In this document: piece after piece, positions 11,965 to 60,291 of the stretch
Layout of the letters: each line of letters opens with the position of its first letter
How positions within the stretch are numbered: the stretch's first letter is position 1
Assembly (NCBI GenBank): GCA_965198005.1
Contig: CBDAOI010000003.1
Span: 256,001-320,000, forward strand
DNA from: Spirochaetia bacterium
GTDB lineage: Bacteria > Spirochaetota > Spirochaetia > SZUA-6 > Bin103
Length of the DNA: 64,000 nt
Reading direction: 5' to 3'
Notes under the pieces: generated by a model
Databases searched by the model: none
The model's input: the letters and a program-made list of their open reading frames with translations, nothing else
What the model was told of the DNA's origin: nothing
Made by a program: the position numbers and the translations under genes

Positions 11965-13236
11965 CTATCCGGTTTGTCCCGCGCGCTCGTGCACGGCTGC
12001 AAGCCACCGCCAGACCGGCTGGAGCCGGATCCGGCCCCGTTTGCCGTACCACTCGACGGTCTCCTCGGTGTCCGTGTCGGCGGTCAGGACCAGCAACCGG
12101 TCGCACGCCAGCTCGCTACCGGCCTGGAGCAGGGCGCGCAACTCGCGCTGTCTCGTGCGCACGGCGGTCATGTCCCAGCAAACCTGGATGAGCTGGGTCA
12201 CGCGACGATCTTCCTGCACGACAAAGTCCACTTCCCGTTGCTGGACGTCCCTCCAGAAGAACAGGTTGCACTCGCCGTCCAGCGCGCGTTTGTGGAGCGC
12301 GACTGCGACCAGATTCTCCACCAGTCTGCCCGTGTCGCGGCTGAACTGCACGGCGCGGGCGGTGATCAGCCCATTGTCGATGCAGTAGATCTTGCGGTTG
12401 GCCACGACCTGCTCGCGCACCTTGAATGAGAAACGTGGGACCGAGAAGAACAGGAATGCCTCCTCCAGGTACCCGATGTACTTGGCCACGGTATGCACGC
12501 TCTTGCTGCCGGTCACCGTGGCAAGCCGGTTCAGCGAGTACTCGCGGGCGACGTTGGCCAGCAGGTACCGCGCCAGATCGTCGATCCCCGCCGCCGACCG
12601 GACGCGACGGCGACGCACGATGTCCTTGTAGAGGATCGAGTCCCACAGCGTGCGGAGATAGAAGCCGCGATCCAGGTCGCGCAGCAACGGCTCCGGGTAA
12701 CCGCCATCGCTGACGTACCGGCGGAACAACTCGGCCAGCTCCGGATCGGTGTGCCGCCCGGAGACCGCTTGCAGCGATTCCGCGAACGAAAACGGGAACA
12801 GGACGATGGGAAGGTGGCGTCCCGTGAGATGCGTGGCCAGCTCCCCGCTCAACAAGTGCGCGTTGCTGCCGGTCAAGATCAGGCGCAATCCCTGACGCTG
12901 GAGCCGATTCACGAACAGCTCCCACCTCGGCAGATTCTGAATCTCGTCGAGCAGCAGATGGCGCGGGCTACCGTACACGGCGTTCACGGCGGCGATCAGC
13001 CGGTCGTAGTCGGCCACGTCCACCAGCCGTTCATCATCGAAGTTGAGGTACCCGTGGGCGGTCCCCTGCGCCAGCAGGTGCATCGCCAGAAACGACTTGC
13101 CGCACCGGCGGGGGCCGATTACGACCTTGATCAGACCGTCGTCACGCACCGGCACCGAGACTTGTCGCCGCACATACCGCTCAGCCAATCGCGACTCCAA
13201 CTCCCGTCGCTGCAGCTCGACTACATCGTGGAGCAT
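11965..13236 (-). CDS. AAA_14 ATPase with DUF4143 / C-terminal nuclease-like fold
   Basis: GPRRCGKS, LLDEIQ, LTGSN, LTGRH, GGYPE, KIYCIDNG, ENLV, EVDFV. Confidence 0.9.
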   Translation of the reverse strand: MLHDVVELQRRELESRLAERYVRRQVSVPVRDDGLIKVVIGPRRCGKSFLAMHLLAQGTAHGYLNFDDERLVDVADYDRLIAAVNAVYGSPRHLLLDEIQNLPRWELFVNRLQRQGLRLILTGSNAHLLSGELATHLTGRHLPIVLFPFSFAESLQAVSGRHTDPELAELFRRYVSDGGYPEPLLRDLDRGFYLRTLWDSILYKDIVRRRRVRSAAGIDDLARYLLANVAREYSLNRLATVTGSKSVHTVAKYIGYLEEAFLFFSVPRFSFKVREQVVANRKIYCIDNGLITARAVQFSRDTGRLVENLVAVALHKRALDGECNLFFWRDVQQREVDFVVQEDRRVTQLIQVCWDMTAVRTRQRELRALLQAGSELACDRLLVLTADTDTEETVEWYGKRGRIRLQPVWRWLAAVHERAGQTG

Positions 13237-30639: not shown

Positions 30640-31977
30640 GTAACCATTTAGCCGGGGGTGGCTGACGTGAGGCAGGGAGGGGTTGTCGGGTGGCCGGCAA
30701 AGACGCTCCGCAGGGCTTCAATTACGTTGCCGCCGTTCTTCCGGACATGAACGCCAGCACCCCGCGCCAGCGGCTGGCCAGCCGTAGCACCAGGTTACGT
30801 GGTTTGCTCTGCTTCTTGCGTCCACGCTTCTTGCGGCTGCCGGGTGGCTCTGGCGGCGGCGGATTGGCGCGCAGCCCGGCGTTCATGATCCTGCGGTACT
30901 CGGCGGCAAACCGTTTGCGCAGTGGCCCGTACAGCCGCGTACGCCCCTCCTCGACCGCGCTTGCTACCGCTCCCTTGATCTCCAGCAGCAACTCGATCAG
31001 CTCTTGGGTCCACTCCTGCCCGTACTGCTCGTGTATGAAGATCAAATCGCGCAGATGATGCGCGTTGCACAGCCCATGGCGGCAGTCGTAGCGGAAGTAG
31101 CTTTGCCAGTGATCGTGCACCGCAGTCCCTGCAAACTCCGGCAAGATGCCGATCTCGGCAAATGCTTGCTGACCCCGCTTCGCGTGCGCCGCGTAGTAGG
31201 TCAGCAATTCCGTGCTCGCCACGTGTAGCCACTGCAGCTTGCCGTTGATACTCATCCCGGTCTCATCGAAGCCGACCACCGGCTGACCACTGATAGCAGC
31301 ACGGATGGTTTCGTTGATCCCCGCCACGCGCTGCCCGCAGAGGTCGTTGATGTTCACCAACGTCCCCACACTAATCGGAATCGAGAACAGATCCTCGAAC
31401 AGCTCCGCCGTTCTCTGATACGGCAGCGGGCCGTAATTCTTCAGATACGTCGCTATCGCTTGCAGCCGGCAGCCGTACTGCACCGGCTGCTCCCAGTCCA
31501 CTACCGGCTCGTCGGCCAGCGCTGCGCCACACCGACAGCGCTCCACACGGCGCACCGTGACCGCGTCCGCTTGCTCCACTTGACGTAGCGTCGCCCCAGG
31601 ATGCTCGGGCTGCCCTCCCGGACGCCTGTCCGTGCGCTCCCGGCGCTTCGATTTGCGCTTTTGCTGCTTACGTTCGAAGGTGTCCCGCGACGGTGGCTTG
31701 CCGCTGTCGTGACTGTCCTTCTTCAGCTCTTGGAGCTCCTGCTCCAGTGCCGCGATCCGTTGCGCCTGCCGCTCACCGGTTACCGTGAATTCTTGGATGA
31801 TCTTCCCGATCAACTCGACCACCGCTTCCCGGCCTCGAGCGTAGACCTCAAGTATCTGCTCACGCGTGAGCTTGAAGCCCGCGTCCATTCCCCCCCAGCC
31901 CTGCCGCCAATCTAGCATCCTGTTCCAAGCAAGTCTATCCTATTCCTCAAATTCCTTTCAGCGGGCTGAATAGTTAA
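30640..31977 (-). mobile_element. IS66-family insertion sequence remnant
   Basis: imperfect terminal IRs GTAACCATTTAGCC (30640) and GGGCTGAATAGTTAA (31963-31977) around a TnpC-like ORF; no target duplication seen. Confidence 0.75.
30722..31888 (-). pseudogene. IS66 transposase (TnpC), internal deletion and C-terminal truncation
   Basis: DSHDSGKPPSRD, GGQPEHPG, FDETG, WLHV, VHDHWQSY, LCNAHHLRDL; lacks the RQVFD zinc-finger segment and the C-terminal NN.AE motif. Confidence 0.85.
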
Positions 31978-39543: not shown

Positions 39544-39848
39544 GCCGGCAACCTTCAGGCGATCACCCCCAGGTGTCAAGCTACTCCCACCGGGCGGTAG
39601 TGTCTCAGTTTGAAGTGCGCCGTGACGCCTGGGGCGATTCAGCGAGCACGCAGGCCGCAACGCGAGTGAACAATCGCTGTCTGCACACACGAGCTCCGGA
39701 TTGCTTCGGCGTCCCGTGTCTTCATACGAGACTCACGATTATCCTGTACGTAGCGTCGCAGTCATCTCACGTCACGCGGCGTGAGCGCACGGCTACTCGA
39801 CAGCCGCCCGGAAGGTGACGTAACGTGCTATCTGACCAGACCAACGGC

Positions 39849-41456
39849 ATGACCTCCTCCGTCGAACAGCTCCACCCGCTTGAAGTGCGCGTGCTGCGCG
39901 CCGCCGCTTCCGATGCGGCCTTTACCGCCGCCGATCTGATGGCCGCCGCCGAACTGAACCTGGGGCAGTGCAACCAGGCGTTCAGTTGGCTGCGGGCCAA
40001 GGGGCTGATCGCGGAGCGGGAGCGGGTGCAGGCGCTGCGCTACGAGTTGACCGCCCTGGGCGAGCAGTACCGGCGCGACGGACTGCCGGAGGAGCGGCTG
40101 GTCGCCCTGGTGCGGGCCGAGGGAGCGCTGCCGATGCCGGAGATCGCCGCCCGGCTGGGGCTGGAGCAGCGCGACGTGGGCTCCGCGTTCGGCGCCCTGG
40201 CGCGCGAGGGAGTGCTGGCGATGGACGGTGCCAAGCAGGTGCGCGCGGCCGGCGCCGAGAGCGCGCGCGTGGCGACGGTGCGCGGGCTGCTGGAGCGGCT
40301 GGCCGGCGGCGCGGCCGTGGCGGAGGCGTTGAGCGAAGCGGAGCGCGCGCAGGCGGCGGCGCTCAGCCGCAAACGCGGTGTGTCTCGGGGCGTGTTTCGC
40401 GCCACCGAGTTGCAGACGGTCAGCTACGTGCTGACGGCGGCAGGGCGGAAAATGCGGCAGGCGGCGGCACGGCGGGCCATTCCCGGCACCAGGAAGGGCA
40501 GTGGCACGCCCGTATCCCTCGGAGTGGCGCTTGGCGAAGCGACCGGCCGGGCGGCGGAGGTGGGCGCCCTGACCCCGGCGATGCTGGCCGACGGGTCCTG
40601 GCGGCAGGTGAGCTTCCGCCGCTACAACCTCAACTCGCCGCCGGGGCGGGTGCTGGTGGGGCGCCGCAACCCCTACACCGCCTACCTGGACCGGGTGCGC
40701 GACCAGCTCACCGGCCTCGGCTTCGAGGAGTTCGACGGGCCGCTGGTGGAGACCAACTTCTGGTGCTGCGACGCGCTGTTCATGCCGCAGTTCCACGCCG
40801 CCCGCGACGAGCACGACGTCTACTTCATCAAGGAACCGCAGTACGCCAGCCACCTGCCGGAGCCCTACTTCGAACGGGTCGCGGCCACCCACACCGACGG
40901 CTGGCGCACCGGCAGCCGCGGCTGGGGCTACCGGTTCGACCGCGACTTCGCCCGCCGCACCATCCTGCGCAGCCAGGGCACCGTGGTCTCCGCCAAGACC
41001 CTGACCCGCGCCCGGGTGCCGGGAAAATACTTCGGCATCATGCGTTGCTTCCGGCCGGACGAGGTGGACGCGTCGCACTTGGCCGACTTCTACCAGACCG
41101 AGGGCATCGTGCTCGGCGAGCAGGTCAACCTCAAGACCCTGCTGGGGCTGCTGAAGCTGTTCGCCGAGGAGGTGGCGGGCGTGGCCAGCGCCGACGTGCG
41201 CTACGAGCCGGCCTACTTTCCGTTCACCGAGCCGTCAGTGGAGGTGTTCGTGCGCCATCCCACGGTGGGCTGGACCGAGCTGGGCGGCTCCGGCATCTTC
41301 CGTCCCGAGGTGACCCGGCCGCTGGGGATCGAGGTGCCGGTGCTGGCCTGGGGACTGGGAATCGACCGGATGGCGATGATGTCGCTGGGGATCGACGACA
41401 TTCGCGACCTGTTCTCGCCCGACCTGGACCAGATCCGGCGCCGGGTGGCGCACTGA
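39849..41456 (+). CDS. pheS: phenylalanyl-tRNA synthetase alpha, long archaeal/spirochaete type
   Basis: N-terminal winged-helix-like extension, DALFMPQFHAARD, FYQTEG, YFPFTEPS, WGLGIDR. Confidence 0.96.
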   Translation: MTSSVEQLHPLEVRVLRAAASDAAFTAADLMAAAELNLGQCNQAFSWLRAKGLIAERERVQALRYELTALGEQYRRDGLPEERLVALVRAEGALPMPEIAARLGLEQRDVGSAFGALAREGVLAMDGAKQVRAAGAESARVATVRGLLERLAGGAAVAEALSEAERAQAAALSRKRGVSRGVFRATELQTVSYVLTAAGRKMRQAAARRAIPGTRKGSGTPVSLGVALGEATGRAAEVGALTPAMLADGSWRQVSFRRYNLNSPPGRVLVGRRNPYTAYLDRVRDQLTGLGFEEFDGPLVETNFWCCDALFMPQFHAARDEHDVYFIKEPQYASHLPEPYFERVAATHTDGWRTGSRGWGYRFDRDFARRTILRSQGTVVSAKTLTRARVPGKYFGIMRCFRPDEVDASHLADFYQTEGIVLGEQVNLKTLLGLLKLFAEEVAGVASADVRYEPAYFPFTEPSVEVFVRHPTVGWTELGGSGIFRPEVTRPLGIEVPVLAWGLGIDRMAMMSLGIDDIRDLFSPDLDQIRRRVAH

Positions 41457-41475
41457 GCGGAGCCCGAGCGAACCA

Positions 41476-43218
41476 ATGCCTACGATTGACGTACACGATG
41501 AGTTGCTGGCCGGCCTGCTGGGCGAAATCCCCCCGGCCGCCGAGCTGGAGCGGCTGCTCTCCACCGCCAAGGCGGAGGTGGAGGGCTACGACCCCGCCAC
41601 CGGTGTGCGCCGGGTGGAGTTGAAGGACACCAGCCGGCCCGACCTGTGGTCCACGCCCGGCCTGGCCCGCCACCTGCGCTGCTACCGCGGCGCCCCGCTG
41701 CCGTTCTACCCGTTCATGGCGCGCGCCGAGGCGCCGCCCGCGACCGGCGAGCGCGCGGTACACGTGGATCCGGGCCTGGAGAATATCCGGCCCTGCATCG
41801 CCGCGTTTGCCGCCGCCGGTCCACCGTTGAGCGAGCCGTTGCTGCTGGAGCTGATTCAGTCCCAGGAAAAGCTGTGCGACAGCTACGGCCAGCGCCGCCG
41901 CGCCATCGCCATGGGCATCTACCGCGGCGCCGACATCGTCTGGCCGGTGCGCTACCGCGCCGCGCCGCCGGACACCCGCTTCGTGCCGCTCGGCTTCGAG
42001 CACGAGCTGTCGCTGACCGAGATCCTCGACCAGCATCCCAAGGGCCGGGACTACGGCCACATCGTGCGCGGCCTGCCGGCGTTCCCGTACCTGGAGGACG
42101 CCACCGGCCGCACGCTGTCGTTCCCGCCCATCATCAACAGCGCCGACCTCGGCAACGTGGGGGTGGGCGACAGCCGCTTCCTGGTCGAGCTCACCGGCCC
42201 CCACCTGGAGACCCTGCTGCTGGTGTGCGCCATCGCCGCCTGCGACCTGGCCGACGCCGGCTACGAGATCTTTCCCGTCACGGTCCGCTACCCCTACGCC
42301 ACCAGTCACGGCCGCGACCTGGTGACGCCGCTCTACTTCCAGCGCGAGACGACCCTGGAGCTGGCCACCGCCGAGCGCCTGCTGGGCGAGACCATCACTC
42401 CCGCCGAGGGGCGGCGCCTGGTAGAGCGAATGGGCAGCCGCGCACGCGTCGAGGGCGCCTCCCTGGTGGTGACCCCGCCCCCCTACCGCAACGACTTCCT
42501 GCACGCGGTGGACGTGGTCGAGGAGATCGCCATCGGCCGCGGTCTCGACACCTTCGAGCCGGAGTTGCCGGAGGAGTTCACCGCCGGCCATCTGACGCCG
42601 GAGACGCAGTTCGCCCGCGCGGTGCGCGAGCTGCTGGTGGGGCTCGGGTACCAGGAGATGATCTTCAATTACCTGGGCGCGCGGCGCGACTACACCGAGC
42701 GCATGAACGCGCCGGAGCGGCTGCTGGTGGAGGTGGCCAATCCGATGACCGAGAGTTATGCGGTGGTGCGCGACTCGATCATCCCCAACCTGCTGGCCGC
42801 CGAAACGAGCTCCCAGAACGCAGCCTATCCGCACCACATGTTCGAGGTGGGCAAGGTGGCGTTGCGCGACGCCGCCGATCCGTCCGGCTCGCGCACGGTC
42901 GATGTCTGCACGCTGCTGGTGGCGGACGGCACGGCCGGCTTCAACGACGCCGGCGCCCACCTCGCGGCGCTGCTGTTCTACCTTGGCGTCGAGCACCGGC
43001 TGGCGGAGTTGGACGACCCGCGCTTCATCCCCGGCCGCGCCGCGCAGGTCGAGGCGGCGCCGCCGGCCGCGGCCGGCGAACCGCGCGCCTGGTCGAGCAT
43101 CGGCGTGCTCGGCGAGCTGCACCCTGCCGTCCTGGAGCAGTGGTCGATCGGCATGCCGTGCGCGGCGGTGGAGTTGCACCTGGACGCGGTGCGCGCCGCG
43201 TTGCCGAGCGCCGGGTGA
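41476..43218 (+). CDS. pheT: phenylalanyl-tRNA synthetase beta, short archaeal type
   Basis: DTSRPDLWS, LSFPPIINS, YRNDFLHAVDVVEE, ANPMTE, GELHP. Confidence 0.96.
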   Translation: MPTIDVHDELLAGLLGEIPPAAELERLLSTAKAEVEGYDPATGVRRVELKDTSRPDLWSTPGLARHLRCYRGAPLPFYPFMARAEAPPATGERAVHVDPGLENIRPCIAAFAAAGPPLSEPLLLELIQSQEKLCDSYGQRRRAIAMGIYRGADIVWPVRYRAAPPDTRFVPLGFEHELSLTEILDQHPKGRDYGHIVRGLPAFPYLEDATGRTLSFPPIINSADLGNVGVGDSRFLVELTGPHLETLLLVCAIAACDLADAGYEIFPVTVRYPYATSHGRDLVTPLYFQRETTLELATAERLLGETITPAEGRRLVERMGSRARVEGASLVVTPPPYRNDFLHAVDVVEEIAIGRGLDTFEPELPEEFTAGHLTPETQFARAVRELLVGLGYQEMIFNYLGARRDYTERMNAPERLLVEVANPMTESYAVVRDSIIPNLLAAETSSQNAAYPHHMFEVGKVALRDAADPSGSRTVDVCTLLVADGTAGFNDAGAHLAALLFYLGVEHRLAELDDPRFIPGRAAQVEAAPPAAAGEPRAWSSIGVLGELHPAVLEQWSIGMPCAAVELHLDAVRAALPSAG

Positions 43219-43261
43219 GGCGCGGACGGGGCGCCGGTTATCGCTGCCGCGGGAGGGCGTC

Positions 43262-44722
43262 ATGCTGACCCGTATCGAACTGGACGGCTTCAAGAATCTG
43301 GTCGAGTTCGCGCTGGATCTCGGGCCCTATACCTGTATTGCCGGCGTCAATGGCGCCGGCAAGTCCAACCTGTTCGACGCCATCCGGTTTCTCTCGCTGC
43401 TCACCGACCACACGATCAATCAGGCGGCGCGGCAGATTCGCAGTGCCGATCCGGACGCCGGGGAGATCGGCGACCTGTTGTTTACGGCAGGCGGCGAGAT
43501 CCGGGGCGGCATGACGCTGGCGGCGGAGATGATCGTGGACCGGCAGGTGGTGGATGACTTCGGCCGGCCGGGGGCTGCCTCGTCCACCTTCCTGCGGTAT
43601 GAGCTTGCCTTCCGCCACCAACCGCCATCCGGGCCGGCCGGGCCATTCGAGCCGGCCGGCGGCCTGGTTCTGGAGCGCGAGGTGCTGCGCCACGTCCCGT
43701 CGCATCAGGCCGCCAGGAAGCTGCGGTTCTCGCACTCCAGACCCGACTTTCGGCGCAGCGTGATCTACAACAAGCGACGGGGTCCGGGTTACGTCTCCAC
43801 CGCCGGGGACGGGGCGTCGGAGCCGGCTCAGATCGTCATCCACCGGGACGGCGGCGCCGGACACGCCCGCCCGCCGGCGCCGGCGGCTCGCGCGCCACGC
43901 ACCGCGGTCGGCACCGAGCATACCGCCGCCACCCCCACCATGCTGGCGGCGCGGCGCGAGATGCAGGCTTGGCGCGTGCTGGCGCTGGACCCCGCGGCCA
44001 TGCGCCGGCCCGACACGTTCACCGACGAACCGGGCATCGCGGCCGACGGCCGGCACCTCCCGGTCACCCTGCACCATCTGGCCCGGCAGGCCGCCACCAC
44101 CGGGAGCGGGGAAGCCGTGCCCGGCGAGCCCGGCGGCGACGTCCTGCACCGGATTGCCCGCCGCTTGTCCGGCCTGATGCCGGTCGAAGCCGTGCGCGCG
44201 GTGAGCGACGACCTGCGCCGGCTCCATACCCTGGAGCTAAGACAGCGCTCCGGCGTACGCCTGCGAGCCGGTTCCATTGCCGACGGCACGCTGCGATTCC
44301 TGGCCCTGGCCACCATCGCCGAAACCACCGGCGGGGGCGTGTATTGCGTTGAGGAGCCGGAGAACGGCATCCACCCGGCCAAGCTGCCGGCCTTGAATCG
44401 GCTGCTGCACGACATCGCGGTCGACCTCGACCGGCCGGTCGGCGCAGCCAATCCGCTACGCCAGGTGCTGGTCGCCACCCACTCCCCCTACTTCGTGCAA
44501 CTCCAGCGCGACGATGAATTGCTGCTGGCCGCCAACCCGGCCGCCGCGCCGCTGCAACTGCTTCCCGTCCAAGGCTCGTGGCGCGCGCGCCCCGGCCGGT
44601 CGGCAGGCGTTGCCCGCACCCGTCCCCGTACCGCCACCCGGCACGACCTGGAGCCCTATCTGATGCCGCCGGTCGACATCCAGCTCCGGTTCCCGGCCGA
44701 GTTCTGGCCCGAAACCCCGTAG
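43262..44722 (+). CDS. AAA_21/ABC-type ATPase (defence-associated type)
   Basis: GFKNL, GVNGAGKSN, DGTLRFLAL, EEPENGIHP, ATHSP. Confidence 0.9.
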   Translation: MLTRIELDGFKNLVEFALDLGPYTCIAGVNGAGKSNLFDAIRFLSLLTDHTINQAARQIRSADPDAGEIGDLLFTAGGEIRGGMTLAAEMIVDRQVVDDFGRPGAASSTFLRYELAFRHQPPSGPAGPFEPAGGLVLEREVLRHVPSHQAARKLRFSHSRPDFRRSVIYNKRRGPGYVSTAGDGASEPAQIVIHRDGGAGHARPPAPAARAPRTAVGTEHTAATPTMLAARREMQAWRVLALDPAAMRRPDTFTDEPGIAADGRHLPVTLHHLARQAATTGSGEAVPGEPGGDVLHRIARRLSGLMPVEAVRAVSDDLRRLHTLELRQRSGVRLRAGSIADGTLRFLALATIAETTGGGVYCVEEPENGIHPAKLPALNRLLHDIAVDLDRPVGAANPLRQVLVATHSPYFVQLQRDDELLLAANPAAAPLQLLPVQGSWRARPGRSAGVARTRPRTATRHDLEPYLMPPVDIQLRFPAEFWPETP

Positions 44723-44737
44723 CGGCAGCACCCCTAC

Positions 44738-45364
44738 CTACGCGACCGGCTGGCGCAGGATAGTCTTGAGCTTCTCGGGCGCGGTGCGATTCGGGTCGTT
44801 CAGATAGGTGTCGTGGTGACGACCGGCCGGCGTCAGTCCCTCGGCGGCGATGAACTGGTGCAGGCGGCGGATGGCGGCTCTCAGATCGGTATAGGGGCCG
44901 ACGTATAGGAGTTGCGCCGCGCGGCCGCCGGCGATGGCGGCCCGGCGCAGCCGCGGCAGCATCGGGTTGGCGGGAGATTCCTTCCTGGCCAGCGCGGTTG
45001 CCGCCGCGACGCCGGCCGCCACGTCGGCGGCGGTCACGAAGTCGGGCAGCATGATCATCGCTCGCCAGCGCGTCGTGTCCGGGCGCGCCAGCGGATCGCA
45101 CGAGGCGCCCGCCTCGTCCCACCACTCGGTCTCCAGCGGCGCCACGACGAAGTCGGGCGCAAGCGCCTGCTTCCTGCGCGCGAACTTGATCTTGTAGGCG
45201 ACCGCGTAGAGCGCCCCAACCGCGTCCTGGAAATGCTCGTCCGCCGGCGCCCCCGTGCCCTCCACCGCCAGGCAGGTACGCTCCGGCAGCGCGATCAGCG
45301 CGGGCGATGCCTTCGCCGTGAACAACTCGCGGTGCTGCTTCTTCAGGTCAATCTTGTCGGGCAA
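44738..45364 (-). CDS. GyrI-like small-molecule-binding protein
   Basis: KIDLKK..RELF, ALYAVAYKIKF, PLETEWW, WRAMIMLP, YVGPY, YLNDP.RTAPEKLKTILRQP. Confidence 0.88.
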   Translation of the reverse strand: MPDKIDLKKQHRELFTAKASPALIALPERTCLAVEGTGAPADEHFQDAVGALYAVAYKIKFARRKQALAPDFVVAPLETEWWDEAGASCDPLARPDTTRWRAMIMLPDFVTAADVAAGVAAATALARKESPANPMLPRLRRAAIAGGRAAQLLYVGPYTDLRAAIRRLHQFIAAEGLTPAGRHHDTYLNDPNRTAPEKLKTILRQPVA

Positions 45365-45557
45365 ACCTTCGTCTCCGTCACACCATGCCTGCCCGGACGA
45401 TCGCTCAGACGGCACGTCAAGACAGGCTGCGGCACGCAATATAGCGTCAATCCCGCGCCCCCGCCTACCGGACGCCGCCACCACGCTCCGGCGGAGTGGA
45501 CGGAGCGGACGGGCCGGCTTCGCCGAGAGAAGCGGCGACTGGCTCAACGCCAATGCG

Positions 45558-45590
45558 GCTCTTGAGTAAAATAACTCAAGAGCGTACATT
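45558..45590 (+). promoter_or_regulatory. promoter overlapped by a palindromic operator
   Basis: GCTCTTGAGT-6 nt-ACTCAAGAGC covering TTGAGT-17 nt-TACATT. Confidence 0.75.
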
Positions 45591-45599
45591 GTCCGGGTA

Positions 45600-46856
45600 G
45601 TGGTCTACCATCGTGCACAGCTCTCGACCCTGAAAGCCCGCCTCCGCGAGCCTCCCGACCGGATCATTGCTCTGTTCGGGCCGCGGCAGACCGGCAAGAG
45701 CACCATCGCGCGTGCGGTGCTGCGTCCGACCGACCACTACCTTCCGGTAGATAAACCCGACCCGACGGGAGTCGGCTTCACGGACGCGGACGCGGACAAC
45801 GTCACGGTCGCCGATCAGCAAAAGCGAGACACCCGCTGGCTGGTGCGCAATTGGGAGAGGGCGCGGCTCGATGCGGAACGGCTACCGCAGGGCTGCATTC
45901 TGGTGGTCGACGAGATTCACAAGATTCCGGAGTGGTCGGAGACCGTCAAGGGACTGTGGGATGCCGACCGCGCCAGGGGGTGCCCGCTGCAGGTGGTGAT
46001 CCTCGGTTCCGCGCCGCTGCTGATCCAGTCGGGGTTGAGTGAGAGCCTCACCGGGCGGTTCGAGCCGATCCACGTTCCCCATTGGTCGTTCGGGGAGATG
46101 GCGGCGGCCTTCGGCTTCGACCTGCCGGCCTATCTCTACTTCGGCGGCTATCCGGGCGCCGCGAGCCTGGCGCGCGACGAGGAGCGGTGGCGCAACTACG
46201 TGCTCGGCGGAATCGTCGAGCCGACTGTCGAGCGCGACCTCCTGGCGCTCACCCGGGTCGACAAGCCGGCGCTGCTGAAACGGCTGGTTGAATTGGCCGC
46301 CGCCCATTCGGGGCAGGTACTCTCCTATACCAAGATGCTGGGCCAGCTTTGGGACGCCGGCAATACGACCACCCTAGCGCGCTACCTCGACCTGTTGGGG
46401 AGCGCCGGTCTGATCGCCGGACTGCAGAAGTACGCGGGGAGCGCCGTGAGACGCCGCGGATCGAGCCCGAAACTCAACGTCCTCAACAACGCCCTGATGA
46501 CCGCCGCCTCCGGCTACTCCTTCGCCGAGGCGCAGGCCGACCGCACGTTCTGGGGCCGCATCGTGGAGAGTGCCGTTGGCGCCCACCTGTACAACACCGC
46601 GACGCTCGACATTCGAGTGCTGTACTGGAGAGACGGCCTGCGCGAGGTCGATTTCGTCCTGCAACGCGGCCCCAAGCTGGTCGCCATCGAAGTAAAGAGC
46701 GGGCCACCGCGACGAACGGATTCGCGGGCGCTGGATGCCTTTGCCACGCGTTTTCGAGGGTCAACGACCCTGCGCTGTTTGCTGGTGGGACCTGGTGGTA
46801 TCCCCCTCAACGAGTTCCTGACGGCGCCCGCCGCTGCGTGGTTCGAGAAAGCATGA
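45600..46856 (+). CDS. AAA_14 ATPase with DUF4143 and PD-(D/E)XK-like C-terminus
   Basis: GPRQTGKST, VVDEIHK, ESLTGRF, FGGYPG, EVDFV..AIEVKSG. Confidence 0.9.
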   Translation: MVYHRAQLSTLKARLREPPDRIIALFGPRQTGKSTIARAVLRPTDHYLPVDKPDPTGVGFTDADADNVTVADQQKRDTRWLVRNWERARLDAERLPQGCILVVDEIHKIPEWSETVKGLWDADRARGCPLQVVILGSAPLLIQSGLSESLTGRFEPIHVPHWSFGEMAAAFGFDLPAYLYFGGYPGAASLARDEERWRNYVLGGIVEPTVERDLLALTRVDKPALLKRLVELAAAHSGQVLSYTKMLGQLWDAGNTTTLARYLDLLGSAGLIAGLQKYAGSAVRRRGSSPKLNVLNNALMTAASGYSFAEAQADRTFWGRIVESAVGAHLYNTATLDIRVLYWRDGLREVDFVLQRGPKLVAIEVKSGPPRRTDSRALDAFATRFRGSTTLRCLLVGPGGIPLNEFLTAPAAAWFEKA

Positions 46857-49800
46857 TTCCCGTACATCGTACCTGCACCGAAGTCCTCGCTGCCGGCAGC
46901 GATCGACGGCGCTCGCCGGAGTCGCATCCGCTGAAGGACTATCGAGACGTTCCCGCGTACGTGCTGCTTGGCGACCCTGGAGCCGGCAAGACCACCGCGT
47001 TCAAGATGGAGTACGAGGCGCTCGCCGACAGCGCGTGCCTCATTGATGCGCGCGACTTCGTAACATTCGATCCGGAGGCGCACCACGAGTGGCGTGGCAA
47101 GACGCTCTTCATAGACGCGTTGGATGAGGTGCGCGCCGGTTCGCACGACGCAAGGACACCGTTCGACGCAATCCGCAGTCGCCTCGACAAGCTGGGCAGG
47201 CCGCGTTTCCGCCTCTCGTGCCGGGAAGCTGACTGGCTCCGTGAGAACGACCGCAAGCGTCTGGCCTCCGTGGCGCCGCACGACTCCCGCGTCACGGTCC
47301 TCCGTCTTGATCCGCTGCAACGCGCGGATGTTAAGAGCATCCTTGACGCCCGCACGGAGATCACGGACGCCCGTGGGTTCATCGACCAAGCCTCGGCGCG
47401 AGGGGTGGATGCTCTGCTGGGGAATCCGCTGACCCTGCGCCTTCTGGCGGATGTCGTGAGCCGCGAGCGACGTTGGCCGCGAAGTCGCCTAGAGCTGTTT
47501 GAGCTGGCCGGCATGCTCCTGACCACGGAGCGCGACAAAGAGCACATTACGGCAGATCCTCAACCGCCGTCTTCCGAGCTTCTGGACGCCGCCGGGCGTC
47601 TGTGCGCTGTCCTTCTGATCTCCGGTGCGACGGGTTACGCCCTGGGCTACGGTCAGGCAAACGCGGAATTCCTCGACATCAGTCAGTGCGAGTACGAAGC
47701 ACGCCAACTCCTGCGCTCAGCCCTGGCCACGAGGTTGTTCACGGCCAGGGCCGAAGGCTGCTTCGCACCTGTTCACCGTCACATCGCCGAGTTTGTCGGC
47801 GCCAAGCATCTCGCCCGGGTGATCCGTGAAGGTCTGCCGGCTTCCCGTATCATAGCCCTACTGACGGGGTACGACGGCGGCGTGCTTAGCAACCTGCGCG
47901 CCGTTGCCGCGTGGCTCGCGGCCTTGAGTGAAGACGCGCAGGCGGAGGCAACGACGGATCGCCGCACGGCTCGAGACTATCTCAGACACGCTCGAGATCA
48001 TGGCGTACCGCTTGACATTCTGCTGGACCGTACGAGACACAGCGAGATACTTCGCGAAGAGATGAGCGAGTTGCTCGTCTGTCACTTACGGCCTGGAGAC
48101 TTCGATGCCTCTCAAGTAGGGCACAGTTTTCTGAATGAGAGTGAAAAACAGTGTCGAGAGTTCATTGAGCTGGTTCGTTCGAACGTCGATGCTCTGCACG
48201 AGAATCGGTGCCCAGTGGGACTACTCCACGAGCTTGCGGTTGCATACTTTGGACTCTCGTCGGATGTCGAGGGCCCTGATCCAAGAGCGCGGATCAGCGA
48301 TCTGTGTGACAGTGATGAGCTCTTGATCGACGCTACACTTGCCGGCCTCCGCGGCGCCCCGTTCCGAAAAGACACTCCCGATACTCGCAAGATCATCGGC
48401 CTGTTGAAATTCGAAAAGGAGTATCTTGTTGCGCTTCCTTGGCTTGCGGGTATAGATGAGCTCGACGATCTGCGCGTGCTGAGCGAGCGGCAGTTGCGCC
48501 AGGGTCTTGCATTCCACTTTTGCTCGTCGGTTGAGGACAGGCTGAACCGACAGCGGCGCCTGCTGGAGCTGGACCACGAAGCCGGTGCCGAGATGCTTGT
48601 GAGGTGCACTAGCGCCAAGATGCGCAGCGGTGTGTACGACGCTGAGGTTGCTCGCCACCTTGCCACAGATGAACACGCATCGGTGGCAAGGCGTGCCGTG
48701 TTGCCCCTCCTGCGTGCGTTCCCGGTGCGCTGCTCGCAGCCAGTGCCCTTGATCATGCTCGATGATCTACTCGTTGCTGCTCTCTGGAGAGTGGATAGAA
48801 CAGCGTTGGTGGAGTTGATCACCAAGAAACGGTCACGGACCAGCATGAGCGTTTCCCAGCGGGTGCACTGGTTGGCGGCCGAAGTCGTTGCGACGGGCGA
48901 CATTAGCACCGACCGGTTGCGAGAATTCGTTCAGCGTCGGGAACGGCGTATTGCTCAGTTGGCGGAATTCCTGTTCGCGGCGGATTCTCTGCTCGCCGAC
49001 TTGCCTGCACCGGCCCTGGCATGCTTCATCCGGCTGCTCGCGCCATCGACTCGGCCGCTCGGAGGAACGGCGTCGCACCTGATTGGCGCGGAATACAAGG
49101 CATACCGGTCCGTTGAGCGCATGATCAAGGCGCTTGCCGTCCACGACGGCACCGACGGACAGACGGTGGAGAATCTGGAACTACTCGCCGCAGACCCGAC
49201 CCAAGGCGAATGGCGATATTCGCTGGCCGCAGCACGGGACCGCCAGCGCGTGATCCGCCGCGACGCTGCCTACCGTCATCCTACGGTTGTGGACGTGTGC
49301 CAGACGCTGAGCGGTGGAGCACCTGCCAGCGCCTGTGACTTGGCAGCGCTGTTGGTAGACCGTTTTGCCAGCCTGGGTCAACGGATCCGCAGTGGCGATA
49401 CGGATGACTGGCGCCAGTACTGGAACGTCGACGAGTATGGGCGACCGCTCGAACCAAGACCTGAGAACGTGGGACGTGACGCGCTGTTGTCCGACCTAGA
49501 GCCGCACCTTCCCCCGGGCGTTAGAGCGCGCCGCGAAGGATCATATTCTCACGACAAGCGAGCGGATATTTTCGTCACTTGTCGACACTTCGAAGTGCCG
49601 GTGGAGATCAAGAGGAGTAGGCACAAGGATCTTTGGAGTGCCATGCGCAATCAACTGATCGCCCAATACACGAATCACCCTGCCACGGACGGATACGGGA
49701 TATTCTTAGCGTTCTGGTTCGGGAGAGACTACATACAGCCGCCGCCCGAGGGCTCCAAACCTGCAGACCCAGACGAGTTGCGGGCGCGCCTTGGGGGTAC

Positions 49801-49861
49801 CCTCACGGAGGCCGAGCGGCGCAAGATTTCGGTGGTGGTAATCGACGTTAGCCGAGAGTAG
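46853..49861 (+). CDS. STAND/NACHT-like NTPase with helical region and C-terminal PD-(D/E)XK-like nuclease
   Basis: LLGDPGAGKTT, LFIDALDE, RLSCR, GNPLTL; C-terminal KRADI...VPVEIK...QLIAQY...GYGIFLAFWFG. Confidence 0.8.
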   Translation: MIPVHRTCTEVLAAGSDRRRSPESHPLKDYRDVPAYVLLGDPGAGKTTAFKMEYEALADSACLIDARDFVTFDPEAHHEWRGKTLFIDALDEVRAGSHDARTPFDAIRSRLDKLGRPRFRLSCREADWLRENDRKRLASVAPHDSRVTVLRLDPLQRADVKSILDARTEITDARGFIDQASARGVDALLGNPLTLRLLADVVSRERRWPRSRLELFELAGMLLTTERDKEHITADPQPPSSELLDAAGRLCAVLLISGATGYALGYGQANAEFLDISQCEYEARQLLRSALATRLFTARAEGCFAPVHRHIAEFVGAKHLARVIREGLPASRIIALLTGYDGGVLSNLRAVAAWLAALSEDAQAEATTDRRTARDYLRHARDHGVPLDILLDRTRHSEILREEMSELLVCHLRPGDFDASQVGHSFLNESEKQCREFIELVRSNVDALHENRCPVGLLHELAVAYFGLSSDVEGPDPRARISDLCDSDELLIDATLAGLRGAPFRKDTPDTRKIIGLLKFEKEYLVALPWLAGIDELDDLRVLSERQLRQGLAFHFCSSVEDRLNRQRRLLELDHEAGAEMLVRCTSAKMRSGVYDAEVARHLATDEHASVARRAVLPLLRAFPVRCSQPVPLIMLDDLLVAALWRVDRTALVELITKKRSRTSMSVSQRVHWLAAEVVATGDISTDRLREFVQRRERRIAQLAEFLFAADSLLADLPAPALACFIRLLAPSTRPLGGTASHLIGAEYKAYRSVERMIKALAVHDGTDGQTVENLELLAADPTQGEWRYSLAAARDRQRVIRRDAAYRHPTVVDVCQTLSGGAPASACDLAALLVDRFASLGQRIRSGDTDDWRQYWNVDEYGRPLEPRPENVGRDALLSDLEPHLPPGVRARREGSYSHDKRADIFVTCRHFEVPVEIKRSRHKDLWSAMRNQLIAQYTNHPATDGYGIFLAFWFGRDYIQPPPEGSKPADPDELRARLGGTLTEAERRKISVVVIDVSRE

Positions 49862-49899: not shown

Positions 49900-50773
49900 T
49901 CAGTCCGCGGCAGGCCGCGGCTCGTGATGGCCAGTGCGGGTTGCGACGAGGCTGGCGAGAATGATGACTGCGGTTCCGGCAACCATGAACCAGTCGATGC
50001 GTTCGTCCCATAGAATCCAAGCGATCCCGGCGGCGAAGAAGACGGACGTATAGTTGAGGGTGCTGACGCGGTCTGCCGGGGCGATGAGGCACCCGCGTGC
50101 GAAGAGCACATGCGCGGCTGTGGAGAAGACGCCAAGCATGACGAGCGCGGGCCACGTCTCGACCGGCGGCAAGCGAGGGGTGAGGAAGAGTGCCGGGCCA
50201 GCGGTAATGAGGATGCCGATCAGCGCGAAGTAGACGGCGATACGGGTGGCGTCCTCATGTCTCGGCATGCGCCATAACGCCACGATCGCGAGTCCGCCGA
50301 GCACACCTGCGGCGAGCCCGATCAAGGCGGCGGGTTGGAAGAAGGCCGTGCCAGGCTTGAGGATGAGAGCTGCTCCTGCGAAGCCGGAAGCGGAACAGCA
50401 GCAATCCGAGAATCGGCACGAAGATCGGCGCGCTGAAGTTGAGAAGGACGGCTTCGGCCAAGGGAATCAGGGTGACCGCATAGTAATAGAACAACAGCGA
50501 CACCACGACAGTCACGCCGCGCATCACGATGAGGCCCGCATGCGCCGGGCGCGAAGACTCCGGCCAGCGCATCACAACCCACGGAGTCAGAATGACCAAG
50601 CTGAGAGTATTGCGCCAGAAGAGAACCTCGACGCTCGAGAGGGTCGTTGCGGCCATCCCAATCGCCATGCCCGCCAGGGCGAACATGAGCCCCGCTGCAG
50701 CCACCAAGCAGGCACCTGCAAGCAGCTGCCTGCGATCCGGGCCGGTCTCTGGAACAGCTGCCTGATTATCCAT
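49900..50773 (-). pseudogene. DMT/EamA transporter with internal deletion and frameshift
   Basis: EVLFWR, IPLAEAVLLNFSAPIF, then a frame change near 50375 to ILKPG...LNYTSVFF. Confidence 0.8.
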
Positions 50774-50889
50774 CTGCCTTGCTTCGCACGGTACACGAAC
50801 GCTCCCGCAACGGCAGCAGCTCCTCCGAGACACCCGCGTGGTGGCACACACAGTGCTTGTTGGCGATGCTTCTGGTGGTTCGTCTCCAG

Positions 50890-51132
50890 GCCCGTCGAAG
50901 CGATGCGGCAGGTGTCCGGTGAGCAGGCTGTAGCGCGACGGCACGCACACCGGGTTGGCCGCGTAGGTCAGATCGAAGCAGGTGCCCTCGCGCGCCAGCC
51001 GGTGCAGCGCCGGCGTGCGCACGTACCGGTCTCCGGCATATCCCGCCAGCCGTGGTACTGCTCATCGGTGGTGATCAGCAGAATGTTGGGCTGCCTCACA
51101 CGGGTGCGCGCAACATCCGCGTCATCAATCAT
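50890..51132 (-). pseudogene. sulfatase N-terminal fragment
   Basis: QPNILLITTDEQ, (frameshift) TPALHRLAREG, NPVCVPSRYSLLTG (CxPxR motif). Confidence 0.85.
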
Positions 51133-51673: not shown

Positions 51674-51800
51674 GGTTCCTCCCGTTTACCAGTATCCGCT
51701 GCGAGACCGTGCCGGCCCCGAGACCTCGTCCCGGTATTGTTGAGATGAATGACTGGTGTGTGTTGAGGTTGCCGTTTCTGTTACCATGATCGTATCGGCC

Positions 51801-53117
51801 ATGATCGAGTATCTGCGCCTGCGCAACGTCGGTCCGGCACCGGACCTGGAGATGGAGCTCGCCCCGAGGCTCAACCTCATTACCGGCGACAACGGACTGG
51901 GCAAGAGCTTTCTGCTGGATGTGATCTGGTGGGCGCTGACGCGCAAATGGCCGCAGGAAGTGAACCCGCACATGAATGCCGGGTATGCGGCTCGACCCGG
52001 GACGGCCGGCGAGAATGCGACTATCGGGTTTCGCGCACGGGGAAGGAGCAACAGCGCCGAGTACGAGGCTCGGTACGTACCGAGGGATCAAGCATGGGTG
52101 GGGCGTGCCGGAAGACCGTTGCTGCCCGGCTTGGTGATCTACGCTCACACGGACGGGTCGTTCTCGTACTGGGACCCGGCTCGGAACTACTGGCGGCGGC
52201 GCGGCGACGCCGACGTCTCCGAGCGCCGGCCGGCGCAGGTGTTTACTCAGGACGAGGTGTGGAACGGAGCGTACGTGCAGGAGAACGGCCGGCGCGTGCC
52301 GATCTGCAACGGGCTGATCATCGACTGGGCGACCTGGATCAGTGCGCAGAATGACAGCCATACGACGATGAAGGCTGTGATCGAGACGCTCGCGTCGGAT
52401 GGGACCGATGTCCGTGTGGAGCCGGGGACTCTGTCGCGCATCTCCATCGATGACCCCAGGGACATCCCGACCATCCGCACCGGCTACGCCGAAGCGATTC
52501 CCATCCTCCACGCATCTGCCGGGGTCCGCCGCGTTGTCGCGCTGGCCTACATGCTCACGTTGGCTTGGCGCGAACATCGACTGGCCGCCCAACAACTCGG
52601 CGAAGAACCGTGCGACAGCATCGTGTTGCTGATAGATGAGGTAGAGAGCCACCTGCATCCCCGGTGGCAACGGTCCATCCTGAGTTCCCTGAGAGGTGCT
52701 GTACGAGAACTGGGCACGCCAACAGCCGTGCAAATGATCGTCACCACACACTCTCCGTTGGTGCTGGCCTCCGCCGAAGCCTGGTTCGACGACGCACGAG
52801 ACGCTTGGTTAGACCTTGATCTGGAGAACGAGTCGGGGGTCGTGCTCCGGCGCGGGATATATGAACGGCGGGGAGCGGTCGGCCACTGGCTCACGAGCGA
52901 GGCGTTCGACCTGCTCACCGACCGTGGAAGCGTTGAGGCGGAGCAGGTTGTCTTGCGAGCTCGGGAGTTGCTCAGTGCCGAGGGGCCTTCGCTCGAAGAG
53001 GTGGAAGAGGTAAGCCGTGAGCTTGGTCAAGTCCTAGCCGAGTGTGACCCCTTCCTCGCTGGGTGGGGTCACTTTCGGGAGCTGCTGAGGGAAAAACGCG
53101 CCCCCGGGCCGTCGTGA
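51801..53117 (+). CDS. ABC/AAA_21 ATPase, PtuA (Septu)-like
   Basis: ITGDNGLGKS, ASAG, LIDEVESHLHPRWQ, TTHSP. Confidence 0.88.
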   Translation: MIEYLRLRNVGPAPDLEMELAPRLNLITGDNGLGKSFLLDVIWWALTRKWPQEVNPHMNAGYAARPGTAGENATIGFRARGRSNSAEYEARYVPRDQAWVGRAGRPLLPGLVIYAHTDGSFSYWDPARNYWRRRGDADVSERRPAQVFTQDEVWNGAYVQENGRRVPICNGLIIDWATWISAQNDSHTTMKAVIETLASDGTDVRVEPGTLSRISIDDPRDIPTIRTGYAEAIPILHASAGVRRVVALAYMLTLAWREHRLAAQQLGEEPCDSIVLLIDEVESHLHPRWQRSILSSLRGAVRELGTPTAVQMIVTTHSPLVLASAEAWFDDARDAWLDLDLENESGVVLRRGIYERRGAVGHWLTSEAFDLLTDRGSVEAEQVVLRARELLSAEGPSLEEVEEVSRELGQVLAECDPFLAGWGHFRELLREKRAPGPS

Positions 53118-53746
53118 TACGAGTCGCGCCACAGCCAGAACCGGGCCACTTCCACCGGGAGGTTCGGGAGCCGGGATCGTGGGCCATCGCGGAGCTGGTT
53201 GGCGAACAATCGTCACGCTCGCAAGGCCGCCGGCTCCATCAGGTCGCGTCGTCGCGGGAAGACATACCTGGCGACGCGTTCCCACGCTACTGGAGGAATG
53301 TTCGCGGCGATCTGCGAGAGAAGTACAACTGCGTCTGCGCGTTCTCGGGGATGCGTATCGAGCCTACCGCCGATTTCACGGTGGATCACATGGTACCCAA
53401 GTCGAGGAGTTGGCGGCTGGTGTACGAGTGGTGCAACTACCGCCTCTCCTGCTTGCGGATGAACCGGAAGAAGAGGGAATACACAGACGTGCTCGATCCG
53501 TTCTGCATCGACGACGCGTGGTTCGTGATGGATATCGTGGAGTTCCGCGTACACCCGGCCGCCGCCCTCGACGAACACCGGAAGCAGAGCGTGGCGGCTT
53601 CCATCAACCGCTTGGGCCTGAATGACCTCGACTGGTGTGAAACACGCCGCCAGCATGTTGAGCAGTACCGCGAACACCGGCGGTTGCGCATCGTGGAGCA
53701 CCTATTCCCGTTCGTGGCCAAGGAGATCCGCCGCCTCGGTCTATAG
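53114..53746 (+). CDS. HNH endonuclease, PtuB-like
   Basis: PQPEP, CAFSG, TVDHMVPKS, YEWCNYRLSC..MN..K, LDPF, INRLGLN; GTGA overlap with the ATPase. Confidence 0.85.
   Translation: MIRVAPQPEPGHFHREVREPGSWAIAELVGEQSSRSQGRRLHQVASSREDIPGDAFPRYWRNVRGDLREKYNCVCAFSGMRIEPTADFTVDHMVPKSRSWRLVYEWCNYRLSCLRMNRKKREYTDVLDPFCIDDAWFVMDIVEFRVHPAAALDEHRKQSVAASINRLGLNDLDWCETRRQHVEQYREHRRLRIVEHLFPFVAKEIRRLGL

Positions 53747-60217: not shown

Positions 60218-60291
<74 letters not shown>

Follow-up and report, generated by a model that had tools for sequence, protein, structure and literature searches.

The closest described relatives of the locus presented here belong to the Avs proteins of the STAND NTPase class. 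[quoted passage not shown] The same article gives the typical order of Avs proteins as N-terminal effector, NTPase and C-terminal sensor, and cites Kibby et al. 2023 and van den Berg et al. 2024 (Cell Host Microbe 32:1427; reference 17). A second relevant group is PDC-S01, which PMC12988326 defines as a single-gene candidate awaiting validation, consisting of an ATPase fused to a PD-(D/E)xK domain, and places fourth in abundance among the candidate defence genes of prokaryotes. Its DUF4143 domain (COG1373) is listed among the PD-(D/E)XK families in PMC3424549. Representatives of both groups are encoded side by side in a 64-kb stretch of DNA from a Spirochaetia bacterium (assembly GCA_965198005.1, contig CBDAOI010000003.1, positions 256,001 to 320,000), which was analysed as a whole and is called the window in the following.

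The two genes probably constitute an anti-phage module of the Erebus (EruA)/Avs10 kind, of which the copy in the window is degenerate and an intact second operon of the same genome does the work. The features of the operon are as follows.

45558-45583, no strand assigned: perfect palindrome GCTCTTGAGT-aaaata-ACTCAAGAGC, a candidate operator over the promoter
45562-45590, plus strand: putative sigma-70-type promoter deduced from conservation, with a -35-like TTGAGT (45562-45567), a 17-nt spacer and a -10-like TACATT (45585-45590)
45600-46856, plus strand: gene 1 (418 amino acids, GTG start), AAA_14 and DUF4143 ATPase-nuclease (PADLOC PDC-S01), apparently intact according to profile matches
46853-46856, plus strand: ATGA start/stop overlap formed by the ATG of gene 2 and the TGA of gene 1, translational coupling
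46853-49861, plus strand: gene 2 (1002 amino acids), NACHT protein of the EruA family (Erebus/Avs10-type; NCBIfam NF058535) with an internal deletion
46853-47938, plus strand: NACHT NTPase and helical/winged-helix module, residues 1-362 (NF058535 positions 11-348; fold matches)
47938/47939, plus strand: junction of an in-frame deletion with a loss of ~320 residues (homolog residues 363-682; homolog alignment)
47939-49402, plus strand: remaining all-helical sensor region, residues 363-850 (helices throughout the model, the first ~65 residues with low confidence)
49403-49858, plus strand: predicted C-terminal PD-(D/E)xK nuclease-fold domain, residues 851-1002, with D905, E918 and K920 (model and invariant columns)

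Gene 2 was matched in two stretches by the NCBIfam model NF058535 (NACHT domain-containing antiphage protein EruA; 6.7e-199, 663.9 bits). This model is an equivalog of 1318 positions with a curated cut-off of 1000 bits; the window protein scores under the cut-off and does not cover the model end to end. Homologs of gene 2 have a length of ~1320 amino acids, and six full-length relatives matched NF058535 end to end (8/15-1318) with 789-1021 bits. The cut-off was passed by one of the six (P0050, 1021.5 bits), those nearest to the window protein reached 789-855 bits, and the protein of the partner-bearing locus L089 scored 1051 bits. Because the relatives match the model end to end and the nearest ones remain under the cut-off, the window protein is a member of the EruA family if this is taken broadly, within a sister clade below the equivalog threshold. 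Pfam, in the copy searched, which did not include PF28130, and PADLOC gave no match to gene 2; PF28130 occurs as a precomputed annotation on gene 2 homologs. In a search of solved structures, the profile of the gene 2 family yielded nothing beyond two chance-level rows of ribosome recycling factors.

The motifs of gene 2, i.e. Walker A GDPGAGKTT, Walker B LFIDALDE and the C-terminal DKRAD...VEIK, lie on invariant columns of the family (G43, G45, K46, D88, D91, E92, D905, E918 and K920 in an alignment of 76 sequences). The AlphaFold2 model of the whole window protein (mean predicted local distance difference test score, pLDDT, 88.0; predicted template modelling score, pTM, 0.73) has an NTPase module at its N-terminus and an alpha/beta domain at its C-terminus, with an all-helical region between them. 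With the full model, Foldseek retrieved NOD2 (7.2e-8), NLRP9, NLRC4 and NLRP3 as best matches (up to 1e-5) and, in addition, Avs4 (7.1e-5). The last 213 residues, folded alone with 76 sequences, gave a pLDDT of 88.7 and a pTM of 0.85. For this C-terminal domain Foldseek found no match at E ≤1e-3; its best rows were Can1, Can2, McrC, SfsA and Bax1 (E 1.8e-3 to 6e-3, probability 0.85-0.99). VIA-align, which works independently of Foldseek, returned Can2 (Z 7.8; root-mean-square deviation 2.8, 113 aligned), BstYI (7.3), BamHI (7.3) and PaqCI (7.1), and nearly all of the 43 listed chains with Z ≥5 have the restriction-endonuclease fold. The prediction of a PD-(D/E)xK nuclease fold is supported by these fold matches together with the invariant D905, E918 and K920.

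Directly behind the NACHT module the protein is interrupted. Compared with a homolog of 1321 amino acids (P0005), residues 1-362 of the window protein correspond to its residues 1-362 (77% identity) and residues 363-1002 to its residues 683-1321 (82%). In agreement with this, the match to NF058535 comprises positions 11-348 and 688-1318 only, and positions 349-687 are missing. At this point, between residues 362 and 363 of the window protein, all 75 aligned homologs have an additional 304-373 residues (median 333). The lost block matches the remainder of the sensor in conservation (mean majority frequency 0.51 vs 0.49) and contains 31 columns with at least 90% conservation, including an RDPxGV..YGD motif. 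In the structural model, residues 361-430 around the junction have a pLDDT of 38-73. The junction is crossed with 0 differences by contigs of two sequencing runs (X1, 913 nt, 47818-48730; X2, 758 nt, 47818-48575), which come from two studies and one of which may be the source sample. Since contigs of both runs bridge the junction, the deletion cannot be explained by a misassembly in this record alone.

The identities of the N-terminal and C-terminal parts point to different nearest relatives (P0007, 84.5% and 52.5%; P0005, 76.8% and 81.6%), which suggests recombination among alleles. Our guess is that the deletion arose by recombination between diverged alleles. A near-identical full-length allele was not found: the metagenome scan yielded relatives at 37-52% identity, and of the 401 genomes of the own phylum four matched, none of them closely. 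The same genome (G000) contains a second, intact operon (C3:56567-63496) with an open reading frame (ORF) of 1342 amino acids, 865.5 bits and no stops; the paralogous NACHT gene (C3:58067-61996) is preceded by its own DUF4143 gene, which is 81-82% identical to gene 1. Shortened NACHT genes were also observed in five of 80 related loci (L008, L020, L025, L028 and L052, with 1185, 800, 1000, 1159 and 553 codons to the first stop, respectively). Damaged copies of the NACHT gene seem to be common, and some of them may be sequencing frameshifts in metagenome-assembled genomes.

Gene 1 exceeded the gathering scores of the Pfam families AAA_14 (1.1e-19, 71.2 bits; cut-off 27) and DUF4143 (4.8e-27, 95.1 bits; cut-off 28.1) and was matched over model positions 1-394 of 395 by the PADLOC profile PDLC04791 of PDC-S01 (3.5e-151). 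In an alignment of 71 sequences of its subfamily, G32 and K33 (Walker A), D104 and E105 (Walker B) as well as D351 and E364 are invariant, and K366 is conserved in at least 90%; gene 1 of the window retains all Walker A, Walker B and D351...E364-x-K366 residues. A search of solved structures by sequence gave rows at the P-loop level only (E ≥0.1). The assignment of gene 1 as an ATPase with a PD-(D/E)xK-type domain is supported at the sequence level. The initial annotation had likewise named the partner an ATPase-nuclease and had recognised the ATGA overlap of the genes, the STAND-type Walker A/B motifs, the nuclease-like D...EIK motif at the C-terminus of gene 2 and, as a suspicion, an in-frame deletion near 47940; all of these were borne out, the nuclease at the level of the structural model.

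DUF4143 genes are expanded in this 4.89-Mb genome (38 Pfam matches, 37 of them over the cut-off); besides gene 1, the window has one at ~11965-13236 on the minus strand. When a hidden Markov model of the subfamily was applied, 28 DUF4143 ORFs of the genome were obtained, of which two (~680 bits) belong to the EruA-partner subfamily; the remainder scored ≤104 bits. The partner is conserved far better than the receptor. Gene 1 is 91% identical to its counterpart in locus L001 and 81-82% to that of the paralog (L081); the respective identities of gene 2 are 78% and 65% for the NACHT part, 50% and 52% for the helical part, and 61% and 58% for the nuclease.

The conservation of the pair was followed in the best 80 of 211 relatives, with one genome per species, which were selected with peptide patterns from the alignment of this clade. 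A tblastn search with gene 1 detected a homolog (50-91% identity) immediately upstream and on the same strand in 78 of these 80 loci, distributed over many phyla, and none in L070 and L079; the proposed coupling of the two genes thus also holds in homologous neighbourhoods. Among the 78 partner-bearing loci, 66 have the 4-nt overlap and three a 2-nt gap, six show other spacings (433, 19, -1, -10, -17 and -19 nt), and in three (L038, L040 and L055) the genes are fused in one frame. The fused loci read ...PASAWFRSE-FVQRSCTEI...PAYVLLGDPGMGK without a stop, and one such genome has an open frame of 1852 amino acids. An independent sample consisted of 400 genomes of one proteobacterial class and contained 15 matches at E ≤1e-50. 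Eight of its 11 strong loci (at least 350 bits) possess the partner, including L089, two do not (L087, 1318 bits; L088, 1055 bits), and one is truncated where its contig stops. None of the four weak loci (174-246 bits) has a partner gene. The strong EruA loci without partner show that the partner marks a large clade inside the EruA family and not the entire family. A complex prediction for gene 1 and NACHT residues 1-362 had a score of 0.00, gave no verdict and counts neither way.

The perfect palindrome upstream of gene 1, to which the initial annotation had also assigned the common promoter, consists of 10+10 nt with 100% complementary arms (45558-45567, GCTCTTGAGT; 45574-45583, ACTCAAGAGC) and a 6-nt spacer; its core starts 38 nt before the GTG. 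The core TTGAGT-N6-ACTCAA occurs once in the window and, with ≤1 mismatch, at two places in the genome, each preceding one of the two operon copies. As a reversed control pattern likewise occurs at two places, the position is informative and not the count. Of 69 loci, 18 have the exact core no more than 160 nt before gene 1, and only three other exact matches occur in 1.16 Mb. When ≤2 mismatches were allowed, 58 of the 67 loci with at least 140 nt of upstream sequence (two were dropped for too little) had the core ≤130 nt before the partner gene, against a background of 17 matches in 1.15 Mb, i.e. 0.0019 per 130 nt. Mostly the dyad starts 41-45 nt before the aligned start codon. After four sites lying >70 nt from the start had been dropped, the alignment of 55 sites yielded the consensus aTTAc.cTaTTGAGTAatTTTACTCAaTAg.gTAa.tT, followed by ~6 nt and the start codon. 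This consensus reads as a -35 region TTGAGT/TTGACT, a 17-nt spacer and a -10 region TAnnnT, in which T and A are at least 90% conserved. The start codon follows the -10 region after 6-9 nt (9 nt for the GTG in the window), and because of this proximity the mRNA would be leaderless or nearly so.

Although the right half-site is situated in the promoter spacer, for which no specific sequence is required, C26 and T27 do not vary. Complementarity was seen in 78.1% of the cells over 17 dyad pairs, compared to 34-42% if the partner is slid, and the covariation score of 0.212 (vs 0.058-0.105) was reached in 0 of 500 shuffles. The inner 6+6 positions served for picking the sites and the outer pairs are independent of this choice; the latter carry double changes, such as CG to TA at pairs 8/35 and 9/34. 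The dyad is missing in the four partner-less loci checked (L070, L079, L087 and L088) and is present in partner-bearing and fused loci. We infer that this candidate operator is the target of a dimeric repressor from the operon itself, and the partner is the most likely protein for this role.

The assumption that a palindrome precedes all DUF4143 genes was rejected: perfect inverted repeats with arms of at least 8 nt were detected at two of the other 26 ORFs and are unlike this dyad. It should be added that a search for perfect inverted repeats misses the imperfect dyad copy of the paralog, which pattern searches find. The same dyad was also observed upstream of unrelated genes (L064:12247 and 16544, L054:11198, L091:6696), in L064 for example before a gene with a NYN domain and before an ORF of 187 amino acids without known family. 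It may serve a small regulon or represent a shared promoter cassette.

Taken as an Erebus/Avs10-type module, the locus could function as follows. The large protein would be an NLR-like switch in which a NACHT NTPase at the N-terminus is followed by a long helical sensor and by a PD-(D/E)xK nuclease at the C-terminus. On the model of the tested Avs10 proteins, the sensor would bind the major capsid protein of a phage, whereupon the NTPase module would oligomerise, the nuclease would be turned on and the infected cell would be killed, as expected for this family. In the large partner-bearing clade, one leaderless or near-leaderless transcript would give rise to both the NACHT protein and the DUF4143 ATPase-nuclease; the dyad-symmetric operator, which travels with the partner gene, would cover the promoter and allow one of the operon's products, most likely the partner, to repress it. 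Where the two genes are fused, the partner is attached N-terminally to the NACHT protein, in the effector position of classical Avs proteins, and it may therefore act in one complex with the receptor, as a second effector or as a licensing ATPase. In the window copy, the ~320 residues missing behind the NACHT module represent the first third of the sensor, so that the trigger is most likely no longer sensed and this copy is presumably inactive; the intact paralogous operon elsewhere in the genome would do the work.

Several observations weigh against this interpretation or parts of it. The window protein and its nearest full-length relatives lie below the EruA cut-off, and capsid sensing is therefore extrapolated from other members; a literature search found no experiment on this clade, and the structural similarity detected for the nuclease domain is of moderate strength (Z <8; Foldseek E >1e-3). 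The highest-scoring EruA locus, L087 (1318 bits), has no partner, and the sample of 80 loci is biased to this clade and over-represents partner-bearing forms. A simple sigma-70 scan of 45300-45700 gave 0 sites, as TTGAGT/TACATT of the window lies just below its threshold, and no RNA data set was listed as containing this stretch. As no site was called, the promoter is deduced from conservation, so that of the two elements recognised by the initial annotation the palindrome is confirmed and the promoter is a candidate. Since the dyad precedes unrelated genes as well, the regulator may be a factor from outside the operon, and its covariation fits a DNA or RNA hairpin equally well as a dimeric repressor. 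Finally, despite the deletion, gene 2 keeps an open frame of 1002 codons and all catalytic motifs, which fits a functional short form equally.

This last point leads to the alternative that the protein of 1002 amino acids is a working short variant, in which the residual two thirds of the sensor recognise a trigger, perhaps a different one, or in which activation depends on the partner. Beside the open frame with intact Walker A/B and D/E/K motifs, it would be consistent with the recurrence of this form without differences in the contigs of two runs from two studies, with the confident model of the rest of the protein (mean pLDDT 88) and with the occurrence of module shuffling in the family, as seen in the mosaic identities to P0007 and P0005. 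Against it stand the conservation of the lost segment, which equals that of the remaining sensor and includes 31 columns of at least 90% conservation, and its retention with 304-373 residues in all 75 aligned homologs; moreover, the stretch right behind the junction is poorly modelled and the other shortened copies among the loci resemble damage. We regard a working short variant as unlikely. The absence of a Pfam or PADLOC match for gene 2 and of a paper on the NACHT-DUF4143 pair had left room for the view of the initial annotation, namely an undescribed defence system with an 'inverted' NLR architecture. This view is quite improbable, as the family of the large protein is already curated in NCBIfam as antiphage EruA, Avs10 is named and its trigger given in PMC13581612, and gene 1 is PDC-S01 of PADLOC; the components are thus not undescribed. 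The pairing is a different matter: each gene has a name, and no publication linking DUF4143 with NACHT was found by the literature search. PMC13069673 mentions neither DUF4143 nor NACHT, and the mention in the ParA preprint is limited to a 'DUF4143-related' restriction endonuclease. A search for the names EruA and HyoA combined with phage terms retrieved no antiphage paper, and Erebus/Hypnos led only to PMC13581612. The pairing of NACHT and DUF4143 appears to be new in print, and the shared promoter palindrome and the conserved partner look undescribed.

A function that is not primarily antiviral was considered as well, for example as a self-regulated addiction or selfish module or as a system for DNA transactions in which the NACHT protein regulates the DUF4143 nuclease. 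The 38 DUF4143 matches in the genome are unusual for a defence gene, the promoter and operator are carried across phyla like in mobile cassettes, and PDC-S01 is still a candidate according to PMC12988326. Nevertheless, tested antiphage proteins share homology with the family over the full length, the low-GC island is shared with Septu and another defence-type ATPase, and the partner subfamily accounts for only two of the 28 DUF4143 ORFs; a non-antiviral role is thus highly improbable. An anti-phage module of the Erebus/Avs10 kind, degenerate in the window and intact in the second operon, remains the preferred interpretation.

The GC content of the window is ~0.70 overall and lower (0.60-0.66) at about 46-58 kb. 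Within this region, a complete Septu system lies 1.9 kb downstream of gene 2.

51756-53746, plus strand: Septu neighbour outside the module, PtuA (51756-53117) and PtuB (53063-53746), PADLOC 6.5e-151 and 2.2e-55

Upstream of the operon and directly behind pheT, an AAA_21/AAA_15 ATPase (~43256-44722, plus strand) is similar to HEC-01A (PADLOC, 8e-84) and MAD3 (NCBIfam, 2.6e-32, below the cut-off); an adjoining partner gene was not detected. The defence-like neighbourhood noticed by the initial annotation is accounted for by Septu and this ATPase. The family of the module was detected in four of 401 genomes of the phylum, including this one, and this rarity fits a horizontal acquisition. A GyrI-like ORF (44738-45589, minus strand) was rejected as a regulator of the operon, as it showed only a GyrI-like ligand-binding domain without a DNA-binding match and its likely start lies well inside the ORF. 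On the other side, an EamA-type transporter (49900-51022, minus strand) is divided into two overlapping ORFs (141 and 255 amino acids), the second of which has a short sulfatase-like segment at its beginning. A frameshift or a rearrangement appears to have disrupted this gene, which borders the defence island. Just past this low-GC island, a tRNA-Arg (CCT) is encoded at 60218-60291 on the minus strand.

Furthermore, the subunits of phenylalanyl-tRNA synthetase (39825-43218, plus strand) are unusual, with an alpha subunit of 543 amino acids and a beta subunit of 580 amino acids carrying a B5 and an Fbeta CLM domain; we take this to be the archaeal-type enzyme known in spirochaetes. A transposase of the IS66 family (30722-31918, minus strand) is located inside a second low-GC stretch (30-36 kb). 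ARAGORN reported an odd tRNA-Asp of 84 nt with the anticodon ATC at 10126-10209, which lies within an ORF with a high GC content at third codon positions and is probably a false call.

The system is an Erebus/Avs10 variant that bears a partner, and its copy in the window is damaged. Little is gained from the large protein, whose family already has a name, tested members and a known trigger. The partner could matter more generally, as DUF4143 ATPase-nucleases of the PDC-S01 type belong to the most abundant candidate defence genes of bacteria and archaea and are described as still unvalidated in PMC12988326. Due to the conserved, coupled and occasionally fused pairing and to an operator-promoter unit travelling across phyla, the locus provides a testable case for one DUF4143 subfamily acting in an NLR-type immune complex and controlling its own expression. 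The more far-reaching idea, which we put forward tentatively and with considerable doubt, is that the DUF4143 partner might be an obligate subunit of an Avs10-type NLR that represses its own leaderless promoter via a dyad of 26-30 bp and joins the capsid-activated NACHT oligomer as a second ATP-driven nuclease. If true, this would be the first mechanistic handle on the whole PDC-S01/COG1373 family. The deletion allele of the window and the intact paralog in one genome offer a natural control for a truncation of the sensor.

In comparison with the known systems, Erebus/EruA (NF058535) is the closest. It has the same order of NACHT NTPase, helical sensor and C-terminal nuclease-fold domain, and some partner-bearing relatives (P0050, L089) pass its cut-off. 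The window protein itself possesses the NACHT-type STAND NTPase with Walker A and B and, according to the model, the C-terminal nuclease-fold domain, but it does not have the complete helical (TPR-like) sensor, of which ~320 residues are deleted; model positions 349-687 are missing, and the score is 663.9 bits. A further difference is the co-translated DUF4143 partner with the conserved operator, both of which are absent from the top partner-less loci L087 and L088. Hypnos (HyoA; NF058534), a sister NACHT antiphage family, gave a weak match (1.8e-20, 72 bits) far under its cut-off of 1200 bits, and EruA is clearly the closer model.

Gene 1 shares with PDC-S01 the full-length profile match and the fusion of an ATPase to a PD-(D/E)xK domain. 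PDC-S01, however, is defined as a single-gene candidate, whereas gene 1 is one half of a conserved and sometimes fused pair, and the EruA-partner subfamily, with its two members in this genome, is distinct from the other DUF4143 ORFs (~680 vs ≤104 bits). With the classical Avs1-4/STAND receptors, gene 2 has in common a STAND NTPase and a repeat-like sensor for a phage protein, and Avs4 is among its fold matches. In contrast to these receptors, its predicted nuclease is placed at the C-terminus, and a second ATPase-nuclease is provided in trans or, in three loci, fused to the N-terminus.

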